Virus record (IMG/VR): IMGVR_UViG_3300049049_000055
Coordinates: 1 to 39,352 of that record
DNA length: 39,352 nt
Strand: one strand, 5' to 3'
DNA from: a virus
Lineage: Duplodnaviria; Caudoviricetes
Shown here: positions 746-30,225 of the stretch, in pieces
Layout: every line of letters starts with the position of its first letter
How positions within the stretch are numbered: the stretch's first letter is position 1
Program-made: the position numbers and the translations under genes
Notes under the pieces: model-generated
The model's input: only the letters and a program-made list of their open reading frames with translations
The model's database searches: none
Told to the model about the DNA's origin: nothing

Positions 746-1228
746 ATGGCTGGTCGTGGCCCTGCGCCGAAGCCTGCCGATAAGCGGGCGGGGCATTCGA
801 AAGATCCCATTCCGCTGCGCATTGTGCAGGCTGTTGTTGCGGCTAAGCCGGAGCTCCCCGAGTTTGAGGTTGAGCGCACAAGCAAGATCAACGGCAACAC
901 CTACACGGAGATGGTTCCGTTTGAGTGGCCTGAACCGACTTTGGTGTGGTGGGCGATGCTCGATTCGCACCCGTTGTCCGCCGAGTTCACTGACATGGAC
1001 TGGTCGTACCTGCTCGACACGGCGATGCTGCATGCCGAGTTTTGGCGTGGCAACACGAAGCATGCTCCCGAGTTGCGGTTGCGAGAGGCGAAGTATGGCT
1101 TTACGCCCGAGGACCGGTTGCGGTTGCGTTTGCAGTTCGCACAGACGGATGAGGCCGAGTCGAAGGTTGTCACGCGGCGCGGTTCGCGTCAGCGGTTCCC
1201 GGTGGAAATATCTAGCGAACTGGGTTAG
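746..1228 (+). CDS. terS: terminase small subunit
   Basis: MAGRGPAPKP start, DWSYLLDTAMLH and ELRLREAKYGFTPEDRLRLR typical of actinophage TerS; strong RBS; position before terL. Confidence 0.85.
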   Translation: MAGRGPAPKPADKRAGHSKDPIPLRIVQAVVAAKPELPEFEVERTSKINGNTYTEMVPFEWPEPTLVWWAMLDSHPLSAEFTDMDWSYLLDTAMLHAEFWRGNTKHAPELRLREAKYGFTPEDRLRLRLQFAQTDEAESKVVTRRGSRQRFPVEISSELG

Positions 1229-1272: not shown

Positions 1273-1326
1273 CCCCCGCGACTGCGTCAACAGTCCGGGG
1301 GCGTGACCAACTCGGATGAGGAGTTG
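1273..1326 (+). promoter_or_regulatory. Structured leader of the HNH gene with an RBS-sequestering hairpin
   Basis: CCCCCG-C-GACTG/CAGTC-CGGGGG hairpin (1273-1301), then CAACTC(1308-1313)/GAGTTG(1321-1326) stem covering SD GAGGAG (1318-1323). Confidence 0.55.
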
Positions 1327-1328
1327 AT

Positions 1329-1925
1329 GTGACCCAGCGTACATGCAAGGCGTGCCCCAGCGACATAAGCCACAGGCACGCGCAGACGGTCTACTGCAGC
1401 CAAGCCTGCCGAAGCTGGTTCGACCGGCACGGCACTCCGAGGACACGCGAGTTCCCGAACTGCCTCGAGTGCGGCAAGAGCCTTCTGCACCGCATGATCT
1501 CAGCCCGCTACTGCACCGTGCTCTGCAAGACCCGCGCGGTGGAGAAAAGACGTGAACGCGACGATGCGGCGCGGTACTTGCGCGAGAGAGAGCATCGGAT
1601 CGCCTACGCGACGCGATACGCGAAAGAAAACCCTCACGTCGGGCAGGCCACGAAGCGCAAGCGCCGTGCGGCGCAGGCGGGTGCGGGATCACACCAGTTC
1701 ACTTCTGCTGATTGGCTGCGACTTCAACGGCGTCACAACTTCTGTTGTGTGTACTGCGGAGAGCGCCGCCGCCTGACTATGGACCATGTTGTTCCGCTTG
1801 TCAGAGGCGGAACCCACTCGATCGGCAACATACTTCCGGCCTGCATGTCCTGCAATTGCAGGAAGCAGGGCCGGTTCGTCATGGAATGGAAGCTCAATAG
1901 GAGCCGGAAGATTGGGTGGAGGTGA
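1329..1925 (+). CDS. HNH endonuclease with N-terminal Zn-finger repeats (likely homing endonuclease)
   Basis: Two CxxC...YCSxxC-type repeats, then CVYCG...TMDHVVPLVRGGTHSIGNILPACMSCNCRK; inserted between terS and terL. Confidence 0.9.
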   Translation: MTQRTCKACPSDISHRHAQTVYCSQACRSWFDRHGTPRTREFPNCLECGKSLLHRMISARYCTVLCKTRAVEKRRERDDAARYLREREHRIAYATRYAKENPHVGQATKRKRRAAQAGAGSHQFTSADWLRLQRRHNFCCVYCGERRRLTMDHVVPLVRGGTHSIGNILPACMSCNCRKQGRFVMEWKLNRSRKIGWR

Positions 1926-1931
1926 GCCACT

Positions 1932-2153
1932 ATCCCTTGGAAGCCAAACGGTGATCCGTTTCCTTCGCTTGGTTGGGACATTGCAGATTGGATGTCCGCA
2001 AACCTTGCATCGCCTGATAGCGATGAAGCGCAGCCGTTTGAAGTCACGCGAGAGCAGTTGGAGTTTCTTGTTCGTCTTTACGAACTGGACCCGAGCACTG
2101 GTCAGCGAGTGAAGCATCGTGCGGTGCTTCAGCGTCCAAGAGGATGGGGTTAG
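1932..2153 (+). CDS. terL: terminase large subunit, 5' segment (absent from ORF track; probable AUC start; ends at TAG inside Walker A)
   Basis: Manual translation: (I/M)PWKPNGDPFPSLGWDIADWMSANLASPDSDEAQPFEVTREQLEFLVRLYELDPSTGQRVKHRAVLQRPRGWG*. This is a typical actinophage TerL N-terminus; SD GGAGGTGA at 1918-1925. Confidence 0.85.
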   Translation: MPWKPNGDPFPSLGWDIADWMSANLASPDSDEAQPFEVTREQLEFLVRLYELDPSTGQRVKHRAVLQRPRGWG

Positions 2154-3595
2154 GTAAGTCTCCGTTCCTCGCCGCGATTGCTTGCGCCGAGGCGCTCGCC
2201 CCCGTGCTGTTTGACGGCTGGGACGCCTCGGGGCAGCCGGTGGGTCGTGAGTGGTCTACGCAGATGACGCCGCTTGTTTTGGTGACTGCTGTGACTGAGG
2301 AGCAGACGGCGAATACGTGGTCGCCGCTTCTTGAGATGTTGCGGAACGGCCCGGTGGTGGATAACTACCGGATCGATCCGATGGATACGTTTGTGGCGCT
2401 CGAGCGGGGTCGGATTGAGTCGCGTACGAGTTCGGCTCGGTCGGCTAAGGGTGCGCGTGCTGTGTGCGCGATCATGGACCAGACGGAGGAGTGGGTTGCC
2501 GGTAACGGTGGCGTCCGGTTTGCTCAGGTGTTGCGGAACAATGCGACGAAGATCGGTGGGGTGACGATTGAGTCACCTAACGCGTTCACGCCGGGTGAGA
2601 ATTCGGTGGCTGAGCAGTCTGCGGTGTTCTGGGAGCAGATCAAGTCGGGTGAGTTCGCGAAGCTGACGGAGACGCGTTCTCTGCTGTATTCGCATCGTGA
2701 AGCGCCGGCCGATACGGACCCTGCCGACTATGAGTCGCTGGTTGCGGGCCTTCGGGTGGCTTATGGGGATTCGTCGGACCACCCTGACGGGTGCGTGTTG
2801 CACGATCCGCCGTGTCCGCCTGGCTGGTCGCCGATCGCGCGTATCGCGTCGGACTTCTATGACACGTCGAACGACCCTCAGGTGATGCGGTCGGACTTCC
2901 TGAACCAGATCACGCATGCTGCGGATTCGTGGCTGTCCCAGCCCGAGCTGAGGGCGATTGAGAAGCCCGACGAGGTTGTTTCGAAGACCGACGCGGTTGT
3001 CCTCGGCTTCGACGGCTCGCGGGGTCGGTCGAAGTCGAAGCCGGACGCGACTGCCCTTGTCGGATGTCGGGTGTCTGACGGTCACCTGTTCTCGTTAGGT
3101 GTCTGGGAGCCCCCGGATGGGCCTGGTGAGGCGTCGTGGGTGTTGCCTGAGCTTGAGGTTGAGCAGGCCGTCAAGGAAGCGTTCGAGAGGTACCGCGTTG
3201 TGGGGTTCTATGCGGATCCGGCGATGTGGGAGGGCCGTGTCGCGGCGTGGGGTGCGAAATACCTTCGTCAGCTCAAGGTGAAGGCGTCGCAGGATAACCC
3301 GGTCGCTTTCAACACGCGTGCGATCTCGAAGGTGGTGCAGGGCTTTGACGCTTTGCATTCGGCGATTGTGAACGGTGAGGCGTCTTATGACGGGAACCGT
3401 GCACTCACCCGACACTTCTTGAACGCGCGGCGGCAGAAGGTTCGCTCGGGCATTGTCCTACGCAAACCGAACAACGACTATCTGGCGAAGATTGATGCCG
3501 CGTATGCGGCGATGCTCGCTTACACATGTCGCCTTGATGCCCTGGGTAAGGGTTTTGGGGCTAGTAATTCACAACGTCCGAGGCGGATCTACTAG
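2144..3595 (+). CDS. terL: terminase large subunit, 3' segment (rest of ATPase plus nuclease); homologous sequence resumes at 2156
   Basis: Begins GKSPFLAAIACAEAL; Walker B-like AIMDQTEEW; nuclease LGFDGSRG..DATALVG and KIDAAYA; followed by portal. Confidence 0.92.
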   Translation: MGLGKSPFLAAIACAEALAPVLFDGWDASGQPVGREWSTQMTPLVLVTAVTEEQTANTWSPLLEMLRNGPVVDNYRIDPMDTFVALERGRIESRTSSARSAKGARAVCAIMDQTEEWVAGNGGVRFAQVLRNNATKIGGVTIESPNAFTPGENSVAEQSAVFWEQIKSGEFAKLTETRSLLYSHREAPADTDPADYESLVAGLRVAYGDSSDHPDGCVLHDPPCPPGWSPIARIASDFYDTSNDPQVMRSDFLNQITHAADSWLSQPELRAIEKPDEVVSKTDAVVLGFDGSRGRSKSKPDATALVGCRVSDGHLFSLGVWEPPDGPGEASWVLPELEVEQAVKEAFERYRVVGFYADPAMWEGRVAAWGAKYLRQLKVKASQDNPVAFNTRAISKVVQGFDALHSAIVNGEASYDGNRALTRHFLNARRQKVRSGIVLRKPNNDYLAKIDAAYAAMLAYTCRLDALGKGFGASNSQRPRRIY

Positions 3596-21743: not shown

Positions 21744-22026
21744 GGCACGGAATCGTTCGCGCAGATCCGACCCTGCGACATCGCACGTGGCCGACGTGAA
21801 GGTGTCGGGTGCTGAGTCGCAGCGGGCCGTCTACGCAGCACTCGCAGCAGTCGACTTCGGGTTGGCCGACTTCGAGCTCGAACAGCGTTTGGCGGGCAGG
21901 TTTTCGCCGGAACGGATTCGGACTGCACGGCACGAGTTGACCGAGGCGGGGCGTGTGGAGTTTACGGGTGTGTATCGGATGACTCGTTCACGGCGGCGGG
22001 CTCGCGTGTGGAGCGCGGTTCCTTGA
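21730..22026 (+). CDS. putative winged-HTH DNA-binding protein
   Basis: RRSDPATSH, D.EL, RTARHELTEAGRV, RVW motif set common in actinophages. Confidence 0.6.
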   Translation: MFTFEARNRSRRSDPATSHVADVKVSGAESQRAVYAALAAVDFGLADFELEQRLAGRFSPERIRTARHELTEAGRVEFTGVYRMTRSRRRARVWSAVP

Positions 22027-22931
22027 GCAACCACTCGATCAAAGGGCTTCGGGAGGAGTTCCGCGCGGTCGGCAAGTTTCACACCCCGCCCGAACTGGCC
22101 CTGTTCCTGCGGTCACTGATCCCCGGCGACCCCGAACGGGTATACGACCCGACGTGCGGTGCCGGTTCTCTGCTGGCGGCGTTTCCCGATGAAGTGCCGA
22201 AGTACGGGCAAGACATAGACGCCGCAGCAGTGGAGGACGCCCGTCTTGCGCTCGAGAACTTCCACGGTCACGTGGGAGACGTACTCACAGACCCCGCGTG
22301 GATGGACGAACGCTTCGACGCGATCGTTGCCAACCCCCCGTTTAGCGTCCGGTGGGAGCCAACCGTAGACGAACGGTTCATGTCTGCGCCGACTGTCCCC
22401 ACCGGCTCACGGGCCGACTTCGCGTTCCTGCTGCACATCCTCCACATGCTCGCCCCCAGAGGGATCGCCGCAGTGCTCAGCTTTCCCGGCATCCTCTATC
22501 GGGGCGGTCGAGAGAAGATGCTCCGCGAATGGTTGGTGGAACAGAACTACATCGACCAAGTGATCTCGATTCCCGGTAGCACGTTCACTGACACCGCAAT
22601 CTCAACGGCCTGCGTTGTGCTCAAGCGGGGCCGCACAACCGATTCGATCCGCTTCATTGATAGAGAGAACGCGATCGAGCGAGACGTAGAGCTTGCGGAG
22701 ATTCGGCAGGCCGATTACACGCTGTCGGTCAGCTCATTCGTTCAGCCGCCGCCCATTGAGCGCGAGCCCTTCGATGCCTGGGCTGTTGAGCAGCAAGCAC
22801 GCGCCGACCTTATCCGGCAACTCCGCAACGGCTTGAACTTCAGTCGTCAGGTGAGCGAGTTCGAGGGGTTCCCACTAGACGGGCTGATTGATGACGCCCA
22901 GACAGTACTTGACGAGTTCCGGGCGGCTTGA
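22023..22931 (+). CDS. N6-adenine DNA methyltransferase (HsdM-like, orphan)
   Basis: GKFHTPPEL, YDPTCGAGSLL (motif I), YGQDID, IVANPPF (motif IV), PGILYRGGRE, FTDTAIST. Confidence 0.88.
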   Translation: MSNHSIKGLREEFRAVGKFHTPPELALFLRSLIPGDPERVYDPTCGAGSLLAAFPDEVPKYGQDIDAAAVEDARLALENFHGHVGDVLTDPAWMDERFDAIVANPPFSVRWEPTVDERFMSAPTVPTGSRADFAFLLHILHMLAPRGIAAVLSFPGILYRGGREKMLREWLVEQNYIDQVISIPGSTFTDTAISTACVVLKRGRTTDSIRFIDRENAIERDVELAEIRQADYTLSVSSFVQPPPIEREPFDAWAVEQQARADLIRQLRNGLNFSRQVSEFEGFPLDGLIDDAQTVLDEFRAA

Positions 22932-24439: not shown

Positions 24440-24873
24440 TGCCGTATCCGCACATGCCAATGGAAGGTGTCGCGTTCGCGGTCAGAGGGACGCCCGCACC
24501 GCAAGGCAGTAAGCGTCATGTGGGTGGCGGTCGCATGGTCGAATCGTCCGCGAAAGTGAAGCCGTGGCGGGCAGACGTTCGCGCCGCAGCAGAAGACGCC
24601 ATGAACGGACACCTGCCCTTCGAGGGGCCACTAGAGCTCGTCGTGACGTTCACCCTCCCGAAGCCGAAAACGGTCAAGCGTGACCTGCCCTCGGTGCGGC
24701 CCGACATTGACAAGCTGACCCGCTCCACCTGCGACGCGCTCACATCGGCGGGCGTGTACATGGACGACTCACAAGTGGTCGCCCTCACTGCCCGCAAGGT
24801 GTACGGCATCGTCCCCGGCGCGTCGATCATCGTCCGCACCTACCACCCAACAGCAAAGGAAGTGGCCGCATGA
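24436..24873 (+). CDS. rusA: RusA-like Holliday junction resolvase
   Basis: GTPAPQGSKR, PDIDKLTRSTCDALT..GVYMDDSQVV. Confidence 0.9.
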   Translation: MMPYPHMPMEGVAFAVRGTPAPQGSKRHVGGGRMVESSAKVKPWRADVRAAAEDAMNGHLPFEGPLELVVTFTLPKPKTVKRDLPSVRPDIDKLTRSTCDALTSAGVYMDDSQVVALTARKVYGIVPGASIIVRTYHPTAKEVAA

Positions 24874-25430
24874 GCCGGACGTGTAGATGCGGCTGTGGCG
24901 CGGAAGTGCAGACCGACTACAAGAAGGGCCACAACCGACGCCGCCCCGCTGAGGAAAGGTTCTGGGAGAAGGTCGAAGTGGCCGACTGCTGGATCTGGAT
25001 GGGTGCGAAAACCAAAGGCTACGGCGCGTTCAACGATGGGTCGAGAATCGTTCGCGCCCACAGGTGGTCATACGAAGCCCTGGTGGGAGAACTGGACCCG
25101 AGTCTGCACATCGACCATCTGTGCCGGAACCCTTCGCGCGTCAACCCGGATCACCTAGAGGCAGTCTCCCCGCGCGAGAACACGATGCGCGGTTACGGGC
25201 AGGCGACTAGAGGAATGCGCGGCGTCGCTAAGGGCAAGAACCCGGACGCCTACTCCTACAGCGCCGAGTACCGCCGGCAGAAGCATGCCGAATACCAGGC
25301 CGACCCTGTCCGTCGTGCGCGCAAGGCAGAGCTGCAACGGCTCCGCCGAGCTCGCGCGCTGCTTCTCGAGGGTGGCCCCGACGACCGACCCGTAATCGTC
25401 CTCGACACACACACGAGGGGTGCCGCATGA
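24870..25430 (+). CDS. HNH endonuclease
   Basis: CRCGCG, RFWEKV..DCWIWMG, AHRWSYE, IDHLCRNPSRVNPDHLEAV.PREN. Confidence 0.9.
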   Translation: MSRTCRCGCGAEVQTDYKKGHNRRRPAEERFWEKVEVADCWIWMGAKTKGYGAFNDGSRIVRAHRWSYEALVGELDPSLHIDHLCRNPSRVNPDHLEAVSPRENTMRGYGQATRGMRGVAKGKNPDAYSYSAEYRRQKHAEYQADPVRRARKAELQRLRRARALLLEGGPDDRPVIVLDTHTRGAA

Positions 25431-29323: not shown

Positions 29324-29551
29324 TTAGTCAACCAGAACGATCTCGTGGTCGAGGCGCGCCCAGGTGCCGTCTGCGAAGTGAACGGTCGGGTAGTGGCCGT
29401 CCCATTCGTAGGAGCCGAAGTGGGTCTTGACGGTTCCGGTGAGCGTTTCGCCTTCCCAGGTCGTGTACTGGGCGGTCTTCCCTTCGAGCGCGATGAGGTC
29501 GCGGGTGAAGGTGCGCTTGTTGATGTCGAGGGTGACCGTGTGTGTGCTCAT
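29324..29551 (-). CDS. hypothetical protein, first gene of leftward moron
   Basis: 75-aa beta-rich ORF with its own leaderless promoter. Confidence 0.7.
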   Translation of the reverse strand: MSTHTVTLDINKRTFTRDLIALEGKTAQYTTWEGETLTGTVKTHFGSYEWDGHYPTVHFADGTWARLDHEIVLVD

Positions 29552-29557
29552 GGGTTG

Positions 29558-29586
29558 AATCTAGCGGGTGTAATACACCCCGTCAA
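29558..29586 (-). promoter_or_regulatory. leaderless SigA promoter with palindromic operator
   Basis: Minus strand TTGACG-N17-TAGATT-N6-ATG; spacer contains GGGTGTA-A-TACACCC (29566-29580). Confidence 0.8.
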
Positions 29587-29598
29587 GAGGGAAGTGCA

Positions 29599-30225
29599 AT
29601 GAAGATACTGAACCTGTACTCCGGCATCGGAGGAAACCGGAAACTGTGGCCGGCCGAACACCAAGTCACGTCGGTCGAGTACGACCCCGACATTGCCGCC
29701 GTGTACGCCGACCTGTACCCGCAAGACGAACTGATCGTGGGCGACGCGCACGAATACCTGCGCGTGAACCATCGGAAGTTCGATTTCATCTGGTCGAGCC
29801 CGCCCTGTCAGACGCACTCCTCTATCCGGTTCAACCTGCAAGTGAAACTGCGTGGCGCGGAAGAGAAGTACGCCGACATGAAACTGTATGAAGAGATCCT
29901 GTTCCTGCAGCATCACTCGTCGGCTACGTGGGTGGTGGAGAACGTCGCCCCCTACTATGACGTGCTCATTCCGGCGCAGAGGATCAACCGGCACTTGTAT
30001 TGGGCGAACTTCACCCTGCCGTCGCTTCCTCAGCATCACGAGAATCTGCGGTCCATTCAGATTGCTGATCTCGAGAAGTTGCACGGGTTTGACCTGTCGA
30101 AGTACAAGCTGGCGAACAAGCGGCAGGTGCTGAGGAACTGCGTCCCGCCCTTGACGGGGTTGCGGATATTCGAAGCGGCGTTCGCGGAGGATGCGGCCGA
30201 TTTCGAGTTGGACATTCCCGCATGA
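29599..30225 (+). CDS. short C5-cytosine DNA methyltransferase (orphan)
   Basis: NLYSGIGG (motif I), WSSPPCQ (IV), VVENV (VI), LRNCV (X-like); 208 aa. Confidence 0.8.
   Translation: MKILNLYSGIGGNRKLWPAEHQVTSVEYDPDIAAVYADLYPQDELIVGDAHEYLRVNHRKFDFIWSSPPCQTHSSIRFNLQVKLRGAEEKYADMKLYEEILFLQHHSSATWVVENVAPYYDVLIPAQRINRHLYWANFTLPSLPQHHENLRSIQIADLEKLHGFDLSKYKLANKRQVLRNCVPPLTGLRIFEAAFAEDAADFELDIPA

Follow-up and report, generated by a model that had tools for sequence, protein, structure and literature searches.

Natural bypassing, the hopping of a ribosome over a coding gap, is known from few genes: gene 60 of phage T4 and its relatives, Magnusiomyces mitochondria, and a candidate in phage Hau3 (PMC5009743, PMC10732093). 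As of PMC5009743, a 2016 review, no natural in-frame hop over a stop codon was known, and it had been suggested that KGWG plays a part in Hau3. In T4, the gap of 50 nucleotides (nt) blocks nicking by the nuclease MobA at a distance of 20 bases, and there are genomes that have lost the nuclease and kept the gap (bioRxiv 10.1101/2022.08.31.505936). The first-pass annotation of the DNA studied here mentioned short bypasses proposed for Streptomyces phage terminases, and these are indeed published: 3 of 100 genes (phiHau3, StrepC.1, and S. catenulae) have gaps of 7 to 10 nt, all of them led by UUA and read as a cell-cycle sensor (PMC10732093). A stop-codon variant of the Hau3 g6/g7 bypass was shown by mass spectrometry (MS) to hop, a stop substituting for UUA in Escherichia coli. 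Here we describe a 5-nt gap led by a natural stop codon in terL, the gene for the large terminase subunit, of virus record IMGVR_UViG_3300049049_000055; the window is the whole of that record, 39,352 nt. The best explanation as a whole, which we consider likely, is a real gap that is crossed by a short stop-codon hop and has spread within a mobile cassette carrying an HNH nuclease.

The insert is a real coding gap within the ATP-binding loop (P-loop) of the terminase. Its parts are the following.

1932..2150, + strand: TerL 5' part, 73 codons, ending in RPRGWG (phrog_9, E 1e-12)
2148..2150, + strand: take-off codon GGT (Gly), from the sequence
2151..2155, + strand: 5-nt coding gap TAGGT, with its stop at 2151-2153 (sequence, relatives, and strain contigs)
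2153..2155, + strand: landing codon GGT, from the sequence
2156..3595, + strand: 3' part of TerL, running from the Walker A Lys to the stop, 479 amino acids (phrog_9, E 2e-41)

The bases and coordinates are as the first-pass annotation read them, CAG CGT CCA AGA GGA TGG GGT (2148-2150), TAG (2151-2153), GGT (2153-2155), and AAG TCT CCG TTC from 2156, and the TerL P-loop is split as GGT[TAGGT]AAG. Of the 80 nearest viral relatives, 78 are uninterrupted at the site and read xRGxG|KSP (loci are given L numbers below). The two exceptions are L042, with a 9-nt insert, and L041, with a 921-nt intein-like insert (∼2080-3000) that lies in the same motif and has His-Asn codons at its end. From the latter, the Walker A site is one that draws several mobile elements. 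A search with the N-terminal protein fragment gave a single match, which ended at RGWG.

Sequencing run X1, perhaps the source of the record (depth 54), matches exactly. Three further studies yielded contigs of diverged strains (X4, X7, and X8), and these have no indel over 2151-2155; elsewhere they differ from the window at 16/616, 50/772, and 54/890 letters, respectively. Silent changes make up 3 of the 4 strain differences listed for the 5' half of terL, all 38 of those for the 3' half, and 4 of the 5 for the HNH gene. Because both halves change almost only at silent sites, terL is alive in both frames. The geometry of the insert is also more than chance, given that 2 of the 1,024 possible five-mers start with a stop and end with GGT or GGC and that this geometry recurs 42 times, as described below.

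For L001, a relative without an insert, a structure model computed together with 65 intact genes reached a predicted local distance difference test score (pLDDT) of 88.6 and matched the large terminases of HK97, T7, and T4 (HK97 TerL fold, E 2e-12). In this model the break falls between the P-loop (residues 67-72) and the helix that begins at K73, and R69, G70, G72, K73, S74, and P75 are invariant in the 65 genes. A fold from a single sequence was useless (pLDDT 36), and sequence searches of the PDB gave no match.

The window insert belongs to a family. Viral, genome, and metagenome contigs were scanned with gapped patterns and, as a control, with an ungapped one, which gave at least 257 parsed junctions. 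The gapped patterns demanded AAG TC or AAG GA and thus passed over any insert that precedes AAG AGY or AAA, and three pattern scans covered 24, 31, and 16 of 64 parts; counts from them are lower bounds. Chance pattern matches that had no terL were dropped, as were intact AAA AGT genes that fitted the gapped patterns; L498, a regular-expression artefact, was recounted as intact, and the intein locus L041 was not parsed. Removal of 29 near-duplicates left 228 junctions. Among these are at least 42 distinct inserts of 4 to 13 nt, all at the same GWG|K codon and in all three frames, versus 186 intact genes; none of the 186 has extra residues at the P-loop. Thirteen of the inserts are in TerL of the window type (GWG|KS) and 29 in TerL of the Hau3 type (GWG|KD), Hau3 included. 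One is in Microbacterium phage vB_MoxS-R1, in which the terminase is annotated in two pieces and the site reads GGT[TAGC]AAG. The insert of L281, a distant Hau3-type locus, is identical to that of the window, GGT[TAGGT]. In IMG/VR, ∼6% of the Hau3-type terL stretches are interrupted (at least 32 versus about 510 intact).

Insert length is 4 nt in 1 case, 5 nt in 4, 6 nt in 7, 7 nt in 8, 8 nt in 9, 9 nt in 8, 10 nt in 3, 11 nt in 1, and 13 nt in 1. TGA leads 14 inserts, TTA 12, TAG 9, TAA 3, AGA 2, GAT 1, and CCA 1, so that a stop or rare codon leads 40/42. The last codon is GGC in 28, GGT in 7, AGC in 5, and GGA in 2, making it Gly in 37. Every in-frame insert is led by a stop (15/15, versus 11/27 of the out-of-frame inserts; P = 1e-4), and this remains true (13/13) when L330 and L387, which came from a scan demanding a stop, are left out. 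No in-frame sense insert was found among the 42 parsed inserts. Selection against such inserts is to be expected if the skipped product alone is functional. Among genes of the window's TerL type, the take-off codon is GGT in 12/13 interrupted genes versus 15/77 intact ones. All 42 gaps are preceded by xGWG, which would be the candidate for a nascent-peptide stimulator, and the intact genes likewise have it.

On a quick TerL tree (89 rows, L387 excluded), the interrupted genes amount to 8 changes, at least 6 of them forced; a second TerL tree (FastTree, 155 columns, 134 rows) gave 16 changes, at least 9 of them forced. The interrupted genes are scattered on both trees yet are more clustered than in shuffles.

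Two further features of the family were noted. The gaps of L287, L296, L294, and L271 are led by AGA, CCA, or GAT instead of a stop or TTA; AGA may act as a hungry codon. Four genes besides Hau3 (L273, L282, L291, and L297) are doubly interrupted, having a second insert at EGARS|TF, the Hau3 g7/g8 site, ∼290 to 320 nt past the Walker A Lys codon. These second-site inserts, of 7 or 10 nt, have a Ser take-off codon, TTA, and a Ser landing codon.

From these comparisons, it is quite probable that ribosomes hop over the insert. Such a hop, carried by peptidyl-tRNA-Gly, is favored because it is the sole mechanism that covers every insert length and frame. Any alternative at the level of decoding would have to vary with the insert: 14 inserts (5, 8, or 11 nt) would need a −1 shift, 13 a +1 shift, and 15 readthrough, and each would add residues to the P-loop. 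The first-pass annotation had proposed a +5 hop over the stop, and this is still the best reading, to which the family and the Hau3 precedent at this codon now lend much strength. Two parts of that proposal were not supported: the stem-loop as a signal (see below) and an exact match between take-off and landing codons as a rule. The two codons are identical in 16/42 inserts, whereas in 32/42 both are GGY (GGC or GGT) and read by the same tRNA.

In the mechanism we propose, translation would begin at ATC 1932, downstream of a strong Shine-Dalgarno (SD) sequence. The ribosome would stall with peptidyl-tRNA-Gly (anticodon GCC) on GGT 2148 while UAG occupies the A site. On a minority of passes, this tRNA would detach, slide 5 nt, re-pair with GGT 2153, and resume at AAG 2156, giving a normal P-loop; the remaining passes would release a 73-amino-acid fragment. 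The other features to which this mechanism and its suggested origin refer are the following.

746..1228, + strand: terminase small subunit gene, terS (Pfam PF25673, E 4e-24), left neighbor of the cassette
1329..1925, + strand: free-standing HNH endonuclease gene between terS and terL, 198 amino acids, Cys-rich N terminus (Pfam PF01844, E 2e-10; phrog_8660, E 1e-34), likely the cassette's homing endonuclease
1918..1925, + strand: strong SD, GGAGGTGA, which overlaps the stop codon of HNH (anti-SD model, −15.2 kcal/mol)
1932..1934, + strand: candidate noncanonical ATC start of TerL, aligned with the Met of MPWKP in relatives
2140..2170, + strand: 10-bp hairpin, probably incidental (folding; intact-gene controls)
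1280..2190, no strand: low-divergence tract comprising HNH, 5' terL, and the insert, limits approximate (strain contigs), read as a co-conversion tract

The hairpin at 2140-2170 folds as the first-pass annotation described it (10 bp, two G-U pairs, a bulge; −11.2 kcal/mol). It is ordinary, and its assignment as a recoding signal was not upheld. Its z score is −2.25 on 31 nt chosen after the fact and −1.13 on 51 nt. When the same insert was placed in intact genes, 19/77 folded at least as well, so the stem appears to be a consequence of the GWG/KSP codons. Compared with controls, interrupted genes of the window type folded no better (P = 0.22) and those of the Hau3 type slightly better (P = 0.04). 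In addition, the stem would be unable to form while a ribosome covers the site. The window has AGAGGA 3 nt before the take-off codon (−5.8 kcal/mol versus a mean of −4.2 in intact genes), and there was no enrichment of SD sequences 5' of take-off among interrupted versus intact genes (P = 0.93 and 0.78), nor any enriched 5' structure in interrupted genes. Folding 9 to 60 nt past the resume codon was weaker in interrupted genes (P = 0.04 and 4e-4); the loci are related, and we do not rely on this result.

There is no in-frame ATG, GTG, or TTG between the HNH stop codon and ATC 1932, and a TerL start at this ATC is likely on the sequence evidence. A strong SD followed by ATC or ATT (SD-ATY) is a feature of interrupted genes in both TerL types: it was found in 22/28 interrupted versus 4/71 intact genes of one type and in 7/13 versus 2/75 of the other. 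The SD threshold, −13 kcal/mol, was chosen after a loose "best SD" call, since replaced, had assigned weak and false ATC starts to many intact genes. Near pairs differ in their starts (L269 has ATC and L468 ATG; L202 has ATC and L079 ATG). In Hau3, the annotated GTG is inside the SD, and an in-frame ATC is three codons on. We interpret the SD-ATY start as a ribosome site that the cassette supplies in replacement and as a scar that lost nucleases leave. The weak start might thin ribosome traffic and aid hopping, an idea drawn from the title of O'Loughlin 2020.

The HNH gene of the window is 62% identical to vB_MoxS-R1 gp70, which has the same position. Using a profile seeded from the window HNH, and excluding from the tables 47 loci with <700 nt upstream, we found an HNH gene ending ≤400 nt upstream of the gap in 8/12 interrupted versus 2/73 intact loci of the window type (P = 4e-7) and in 5/28 versus 0/68 of the Hau3 type (P = 0.002). 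HNH or SD-ATY is present in 32/40 interrupted versus 7/141 intact loci. One locus, L292, has a different HNH beside terL. An HNH search of viral contigs gave no match.

Across HNH and 5' terL, the strains diverge by ∼1% (5/434 in X4; 2/174 and 3/362 in X8), versus 6 to 11% in the flanks. In X4, the flank values are 10/177 at the terS end (1103-1279) and 16/144 and 12 to 16/140 in terL past the gap. The X7 and X8 contigs have 3 to 4 differences before 2156 among the differences listed. Such a low-divergence tract is what recent co-conversion would leave, which the pattern suggests; ordinary recombination could leave it too. A second comparison involves L051, which has HNH and an intact terL, and L052, which has no HNH. 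The two are 97.7% identical, HNH having been inserted cleanly between terS and terL. Their mismatches cluster from −60 to +90 of the Walker A codon (12/150, versus 0/150 upstream), which suggests a nuclease target near the Walker A codons, with point changes as a second route to immunity. A nuclease of the packaging module (the HK97 gp74 type), which would be constant among relatives, is a poor fit: this HNH is absent beside terL in 71/73 intact relatives and is cleanly inserted in L051 versus L052. In one clade with 6-nt gaps, two of the four members (L201, L202, L207, and L238) have HNH, which is frameshifted in L202, one has a distant HNH, and one has none. This pattern suggests that nucleases turn over while the gap is retained.

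Together, the HNH gene, the insert, and the low-divergence tract suggest a mobile homing cassette like T4 mobA/gene 60; the first-pass annotation had overlooked the HNH gene, the ATC start, and the tract. The nuclease would cut phages that have no HNH near their Walker A codons and copy itself, 5' terL, and the gap into them; in its own genome the gap would spoil the target, as T4's gap of 50 nt acts against MobA. Afterwards HNH would often be lost, leaving the gap and the SD-ATY start. We think it reasonably likely that the gap arose as immunity against the nuclease, whose target and activity are putative.

Several points weigh against the explanation as a whole. The hop is a prediction from DNA comparison, and for Hau3 the MS evidence was obtained with an engineered stop in E. 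coli and from a band that was faint. Ten of the 42 inserts have no same-tRNA match: 5 land on AGC and 5 pair GGA with GGY. No helper signal, either hairpin or SD, was found, and efficiency may therefore be low. The family counts are not independent, many of the UUA-led inserts being one cluster (2 changes), and both trees are quick trees. The silent-site counts are from 47 listed strain differences that were classed, and the comparison of X4, X7, and X8 covers 40 of 157 differences. As for the cassette, 27/40 interrupted loci, Hau3 among them, do not have this HNH family next to terL, so frequent loss of HNH must be assumed; two loci have HNH and yet an intact terL; and X4 also has a second, more distant HNH allele (63/434 differences).

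The rival that best survives accepts the hop and gives it another purpose: the gap would regulate TerL, as a dose limiter or as a sensor of host state like that proposed for the Hau3 UUA, and HNH would be a bystander at an insertion hot spot. The majority of interrupted loci are without HNH, nuclease genes generally cluster near terminases (PMC10055350), and the weak ATC or ATT start that accompanies the insert would lower TerL too. Against it stand the strong HNH enrichment in both TerL types, a low-divergence tract that stops just beyond the insert, and the L051/L052 mismatch cluster. Moreover, stop-led and UUA-led inserts occur in genes that are 95% identical (L288 versus L277), from which UUA is not essential. 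We consider this rival unlikely, although it keeps some weight. Regulation may be a later use of the gap; limiting the level of TerL, the effect that the first-pass annotation saw in the hop, is probably not its origin.

The remaining rivals replace the hop. In a −1 slip at the stop, tRNA-Gly would move from GGT to GGG and the ribosome would read TTA GGT AAG, giving GWGLGKS. The −1 frame is open across the site, a run of G's lies just before the stop, and the authors of vB_MoxS-R1 guessed such a slip for their own site (PMC9030533). The slip would add two residues to a P-loop that is otherwise invariant, none of the 186 intact genes having any extra there. It fits only the 5-, 8-, and 11-nt inserts (14/42), and the +4 insert of vB_MoxS-R1 itself cannot be bridged by −1. 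The sequence, A TGG GGT TAG, is not a slippery heptamer X XXY YYZ that allows −1 re-pairing; tRNA-Gly(GCC) shifted from GGT to GGG has a third-position mismatch. Finally, the slip needs a TTA codon, and of the 337 Leu codons counted in 12 genes of the window, one is TTA. We judge it improbable.

TerL might instead be made as two chains, with termination at TAG, reinitiation at ATG 2144 (MGLGKSPF...), and later assembly. The first-pass annotation had pointed out this ATG, and it is there, in the downstream frame and 7 nt ahead of the stop; a split TerL is also annotated in Gordonia phage Nyceirae, but at the border between ATPase and nuclease. ATG 2144 has no spaced SD, and in the family ATG, GTG, or TTG occurs in the Lys frame within 45 nt upstream in 10/42 interrupted genes and in none of the 15 in-frame ones. 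By the L001 model, the P-loop itself would be severed. Two chains are highly unlikely.

About as poor is removal of the gap at the RNA level (by a micro-intron, trans-splicing, or polymerase slippage) followed by normal translation. Stop-first inserts beside a homing nuclease do look like intron remnants. To our knowledge, 4 to 13 nt cannot fold as a ribozyme, and RNA-level removal would favor neither leading stall codons nor final Gly codons. The T4 gap may stem from a group I intron (PMC5009743), and phage terminases with introns and neighboring nucleases are known (PMC10055350), but the Hau3 product required a slow codon in the A site.

A dead gene, in a defective prophage or a phage packaged by a helper's terminase, would fit the presence of an integrase, the linear record with a CheckV value of 58%, and the fact that this phage is known from sequence, no particles being known. 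Against it, the changes listed for the two halves are silent in 41/42 cases, many lineages have the insert at one and the same codon, and both Hau3 and vB_MoxS-R1 make particles despite their inserts. Silent-site evolution largely refutes this reading, which has very little probability left. An assembly or sequencing error is negligible as an explanation; the evidence consists of contigs rather than raw reads, but diverged strains of three other studies have the identical five bases.

The window is a complete virus record, linear and 61% G+C, of a temperate siphophage of actinobacteria. The gene order is terS, HNH, and terL (1932-3595), followed by portal, scaffold, capsid, tape measure, and integrase. 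Relatives of its terL were found in Streptomyces, Mycobacterium, Rhodococcus, Gordonia, and Microbacterium phages. Soil metagenomes are the majority of the listed runs containing the window, and no RNA datasets are among those runs. A stand-alone primase/polymerase-like gene lies at 176-697, directly before terS (phrog_8643), and the terS end (window 1226) has 21 additional bases in strains X4 and X7. Further genes are an N6 methyltransferase (22008-22931), a second HNH (HNH_3, 24870-25430), and a C5 methyltransferase (29542-30225).

The interrupted Hau3-type terL genes of IMG/VR would pass for pseudogenes or split genes. The 42 gaps, at one codon and of varied length, stall codon, and landing match, offer an allelic series from which the rules of short hopping could be worked out, and the family has cultured members: vB_MoxS-R1, Hau3, and prophages of named Streptomyces and Corynebacterium strains. 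A broader proposition, which to us could equally well prove right or wrong, is that a minimal "recoding shield" is widespread in actinobacterial phages: a free-standing HNH would bring a new SD, an AUC or AUU start, and, in the P-loop codons of the terminase, a 4- to 13-nt stall-and-hop gap, basal hopping with no RNA structure would rescue terL, and the UUA sensor of Hau3 would have branched off late from nuclease immunity. In that case these would be the first natural stop-hops. The 42 gaps also bring together the gaps of Hau3 and the nuclease cassette of T4, hitherto told apart, and make the origin of coding gaps testable. We found no literature that links terminase gaps to HNH or treats stop-led gaps as bypasses, in a scope that included bioRxiv 2024.12.09.627546 and the available part of PMC11194080; paywalled papers and supplements may hold cases.

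Of the known systems, Hau3 is the closest. It shares with the window the GWG|K codon, a short gap, a slow first codon, Gly codons on both sides, and an essential TerL, and it is itself one of the 42 inserts, GGC[TTACTCCGGT]AAG. Like the published gaps, that of the window is a short noncoding insert at TerL GWG|K that is absent from relatives, and its take-off and landing codons, GGT and GGT, are read by one tRNA. The window differs in its A-site codon, which is TAG and not UUA (TTA leads 12/42 inserts), and in having a 5-nt gap with a natural stop first, a TerL of the type RPRGWG|KS, a position outside the Hau3 clade, and a link to HNH. The words "HNH" and "homing" are absent from the main text of PMC10732093.

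T4 gene 60/MobA is alike in its Gly take-off codon, the UAG next to it, a matched landing codon, an upstream HNH gene, and an essential gene; in both, the gap lies past the nuclease gene, and the nuclease is often lost and the gap kept (bioRxiv 10.1101/2022.08.31.505936). The window HNH and MobA are both HNH nucleases. As in the T4 cassette, HNH is linked to the gap, and the low-divergence tract and the scatter on the trees look like signs of joint horizontal spread. The differences are a gap of 5 nt instead of 20 to 50, no stem-loops found to be conserved, variable gap sequences, a terminase instead of a topoisomerase, and a nuclease gene that lies between genes where that of T4 splits an open reading frame. 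The word "terminase" is absent from the available text of bioRxiv 10.1101/2022.08.31.505936.

Synthetic stop-hops in E. coli (PMC5009743) likewise have matched codons around a stop. Seven 6-nt inserts of the family (e.g., GGT TGA GGC) give, as the synthetic ones do, exactly 9 nt for one amino acid; the gap of the window is out of frame, unlike such in-frame hops. The split TerL of Gordonia phage Nyceirae was rejected as a case of the same kind, being split at another site. Microbacterium phage vB_MoxS-R1 has the same codon, GGT TAG, a homologous upstream HNH, and an ATC start, and it differs in its 4-nt gap and its landing on AGC; the published account of its split is that of a putative −1 frameshift, and the available text links it to neither a family nor a nuclease (PMC9030533).

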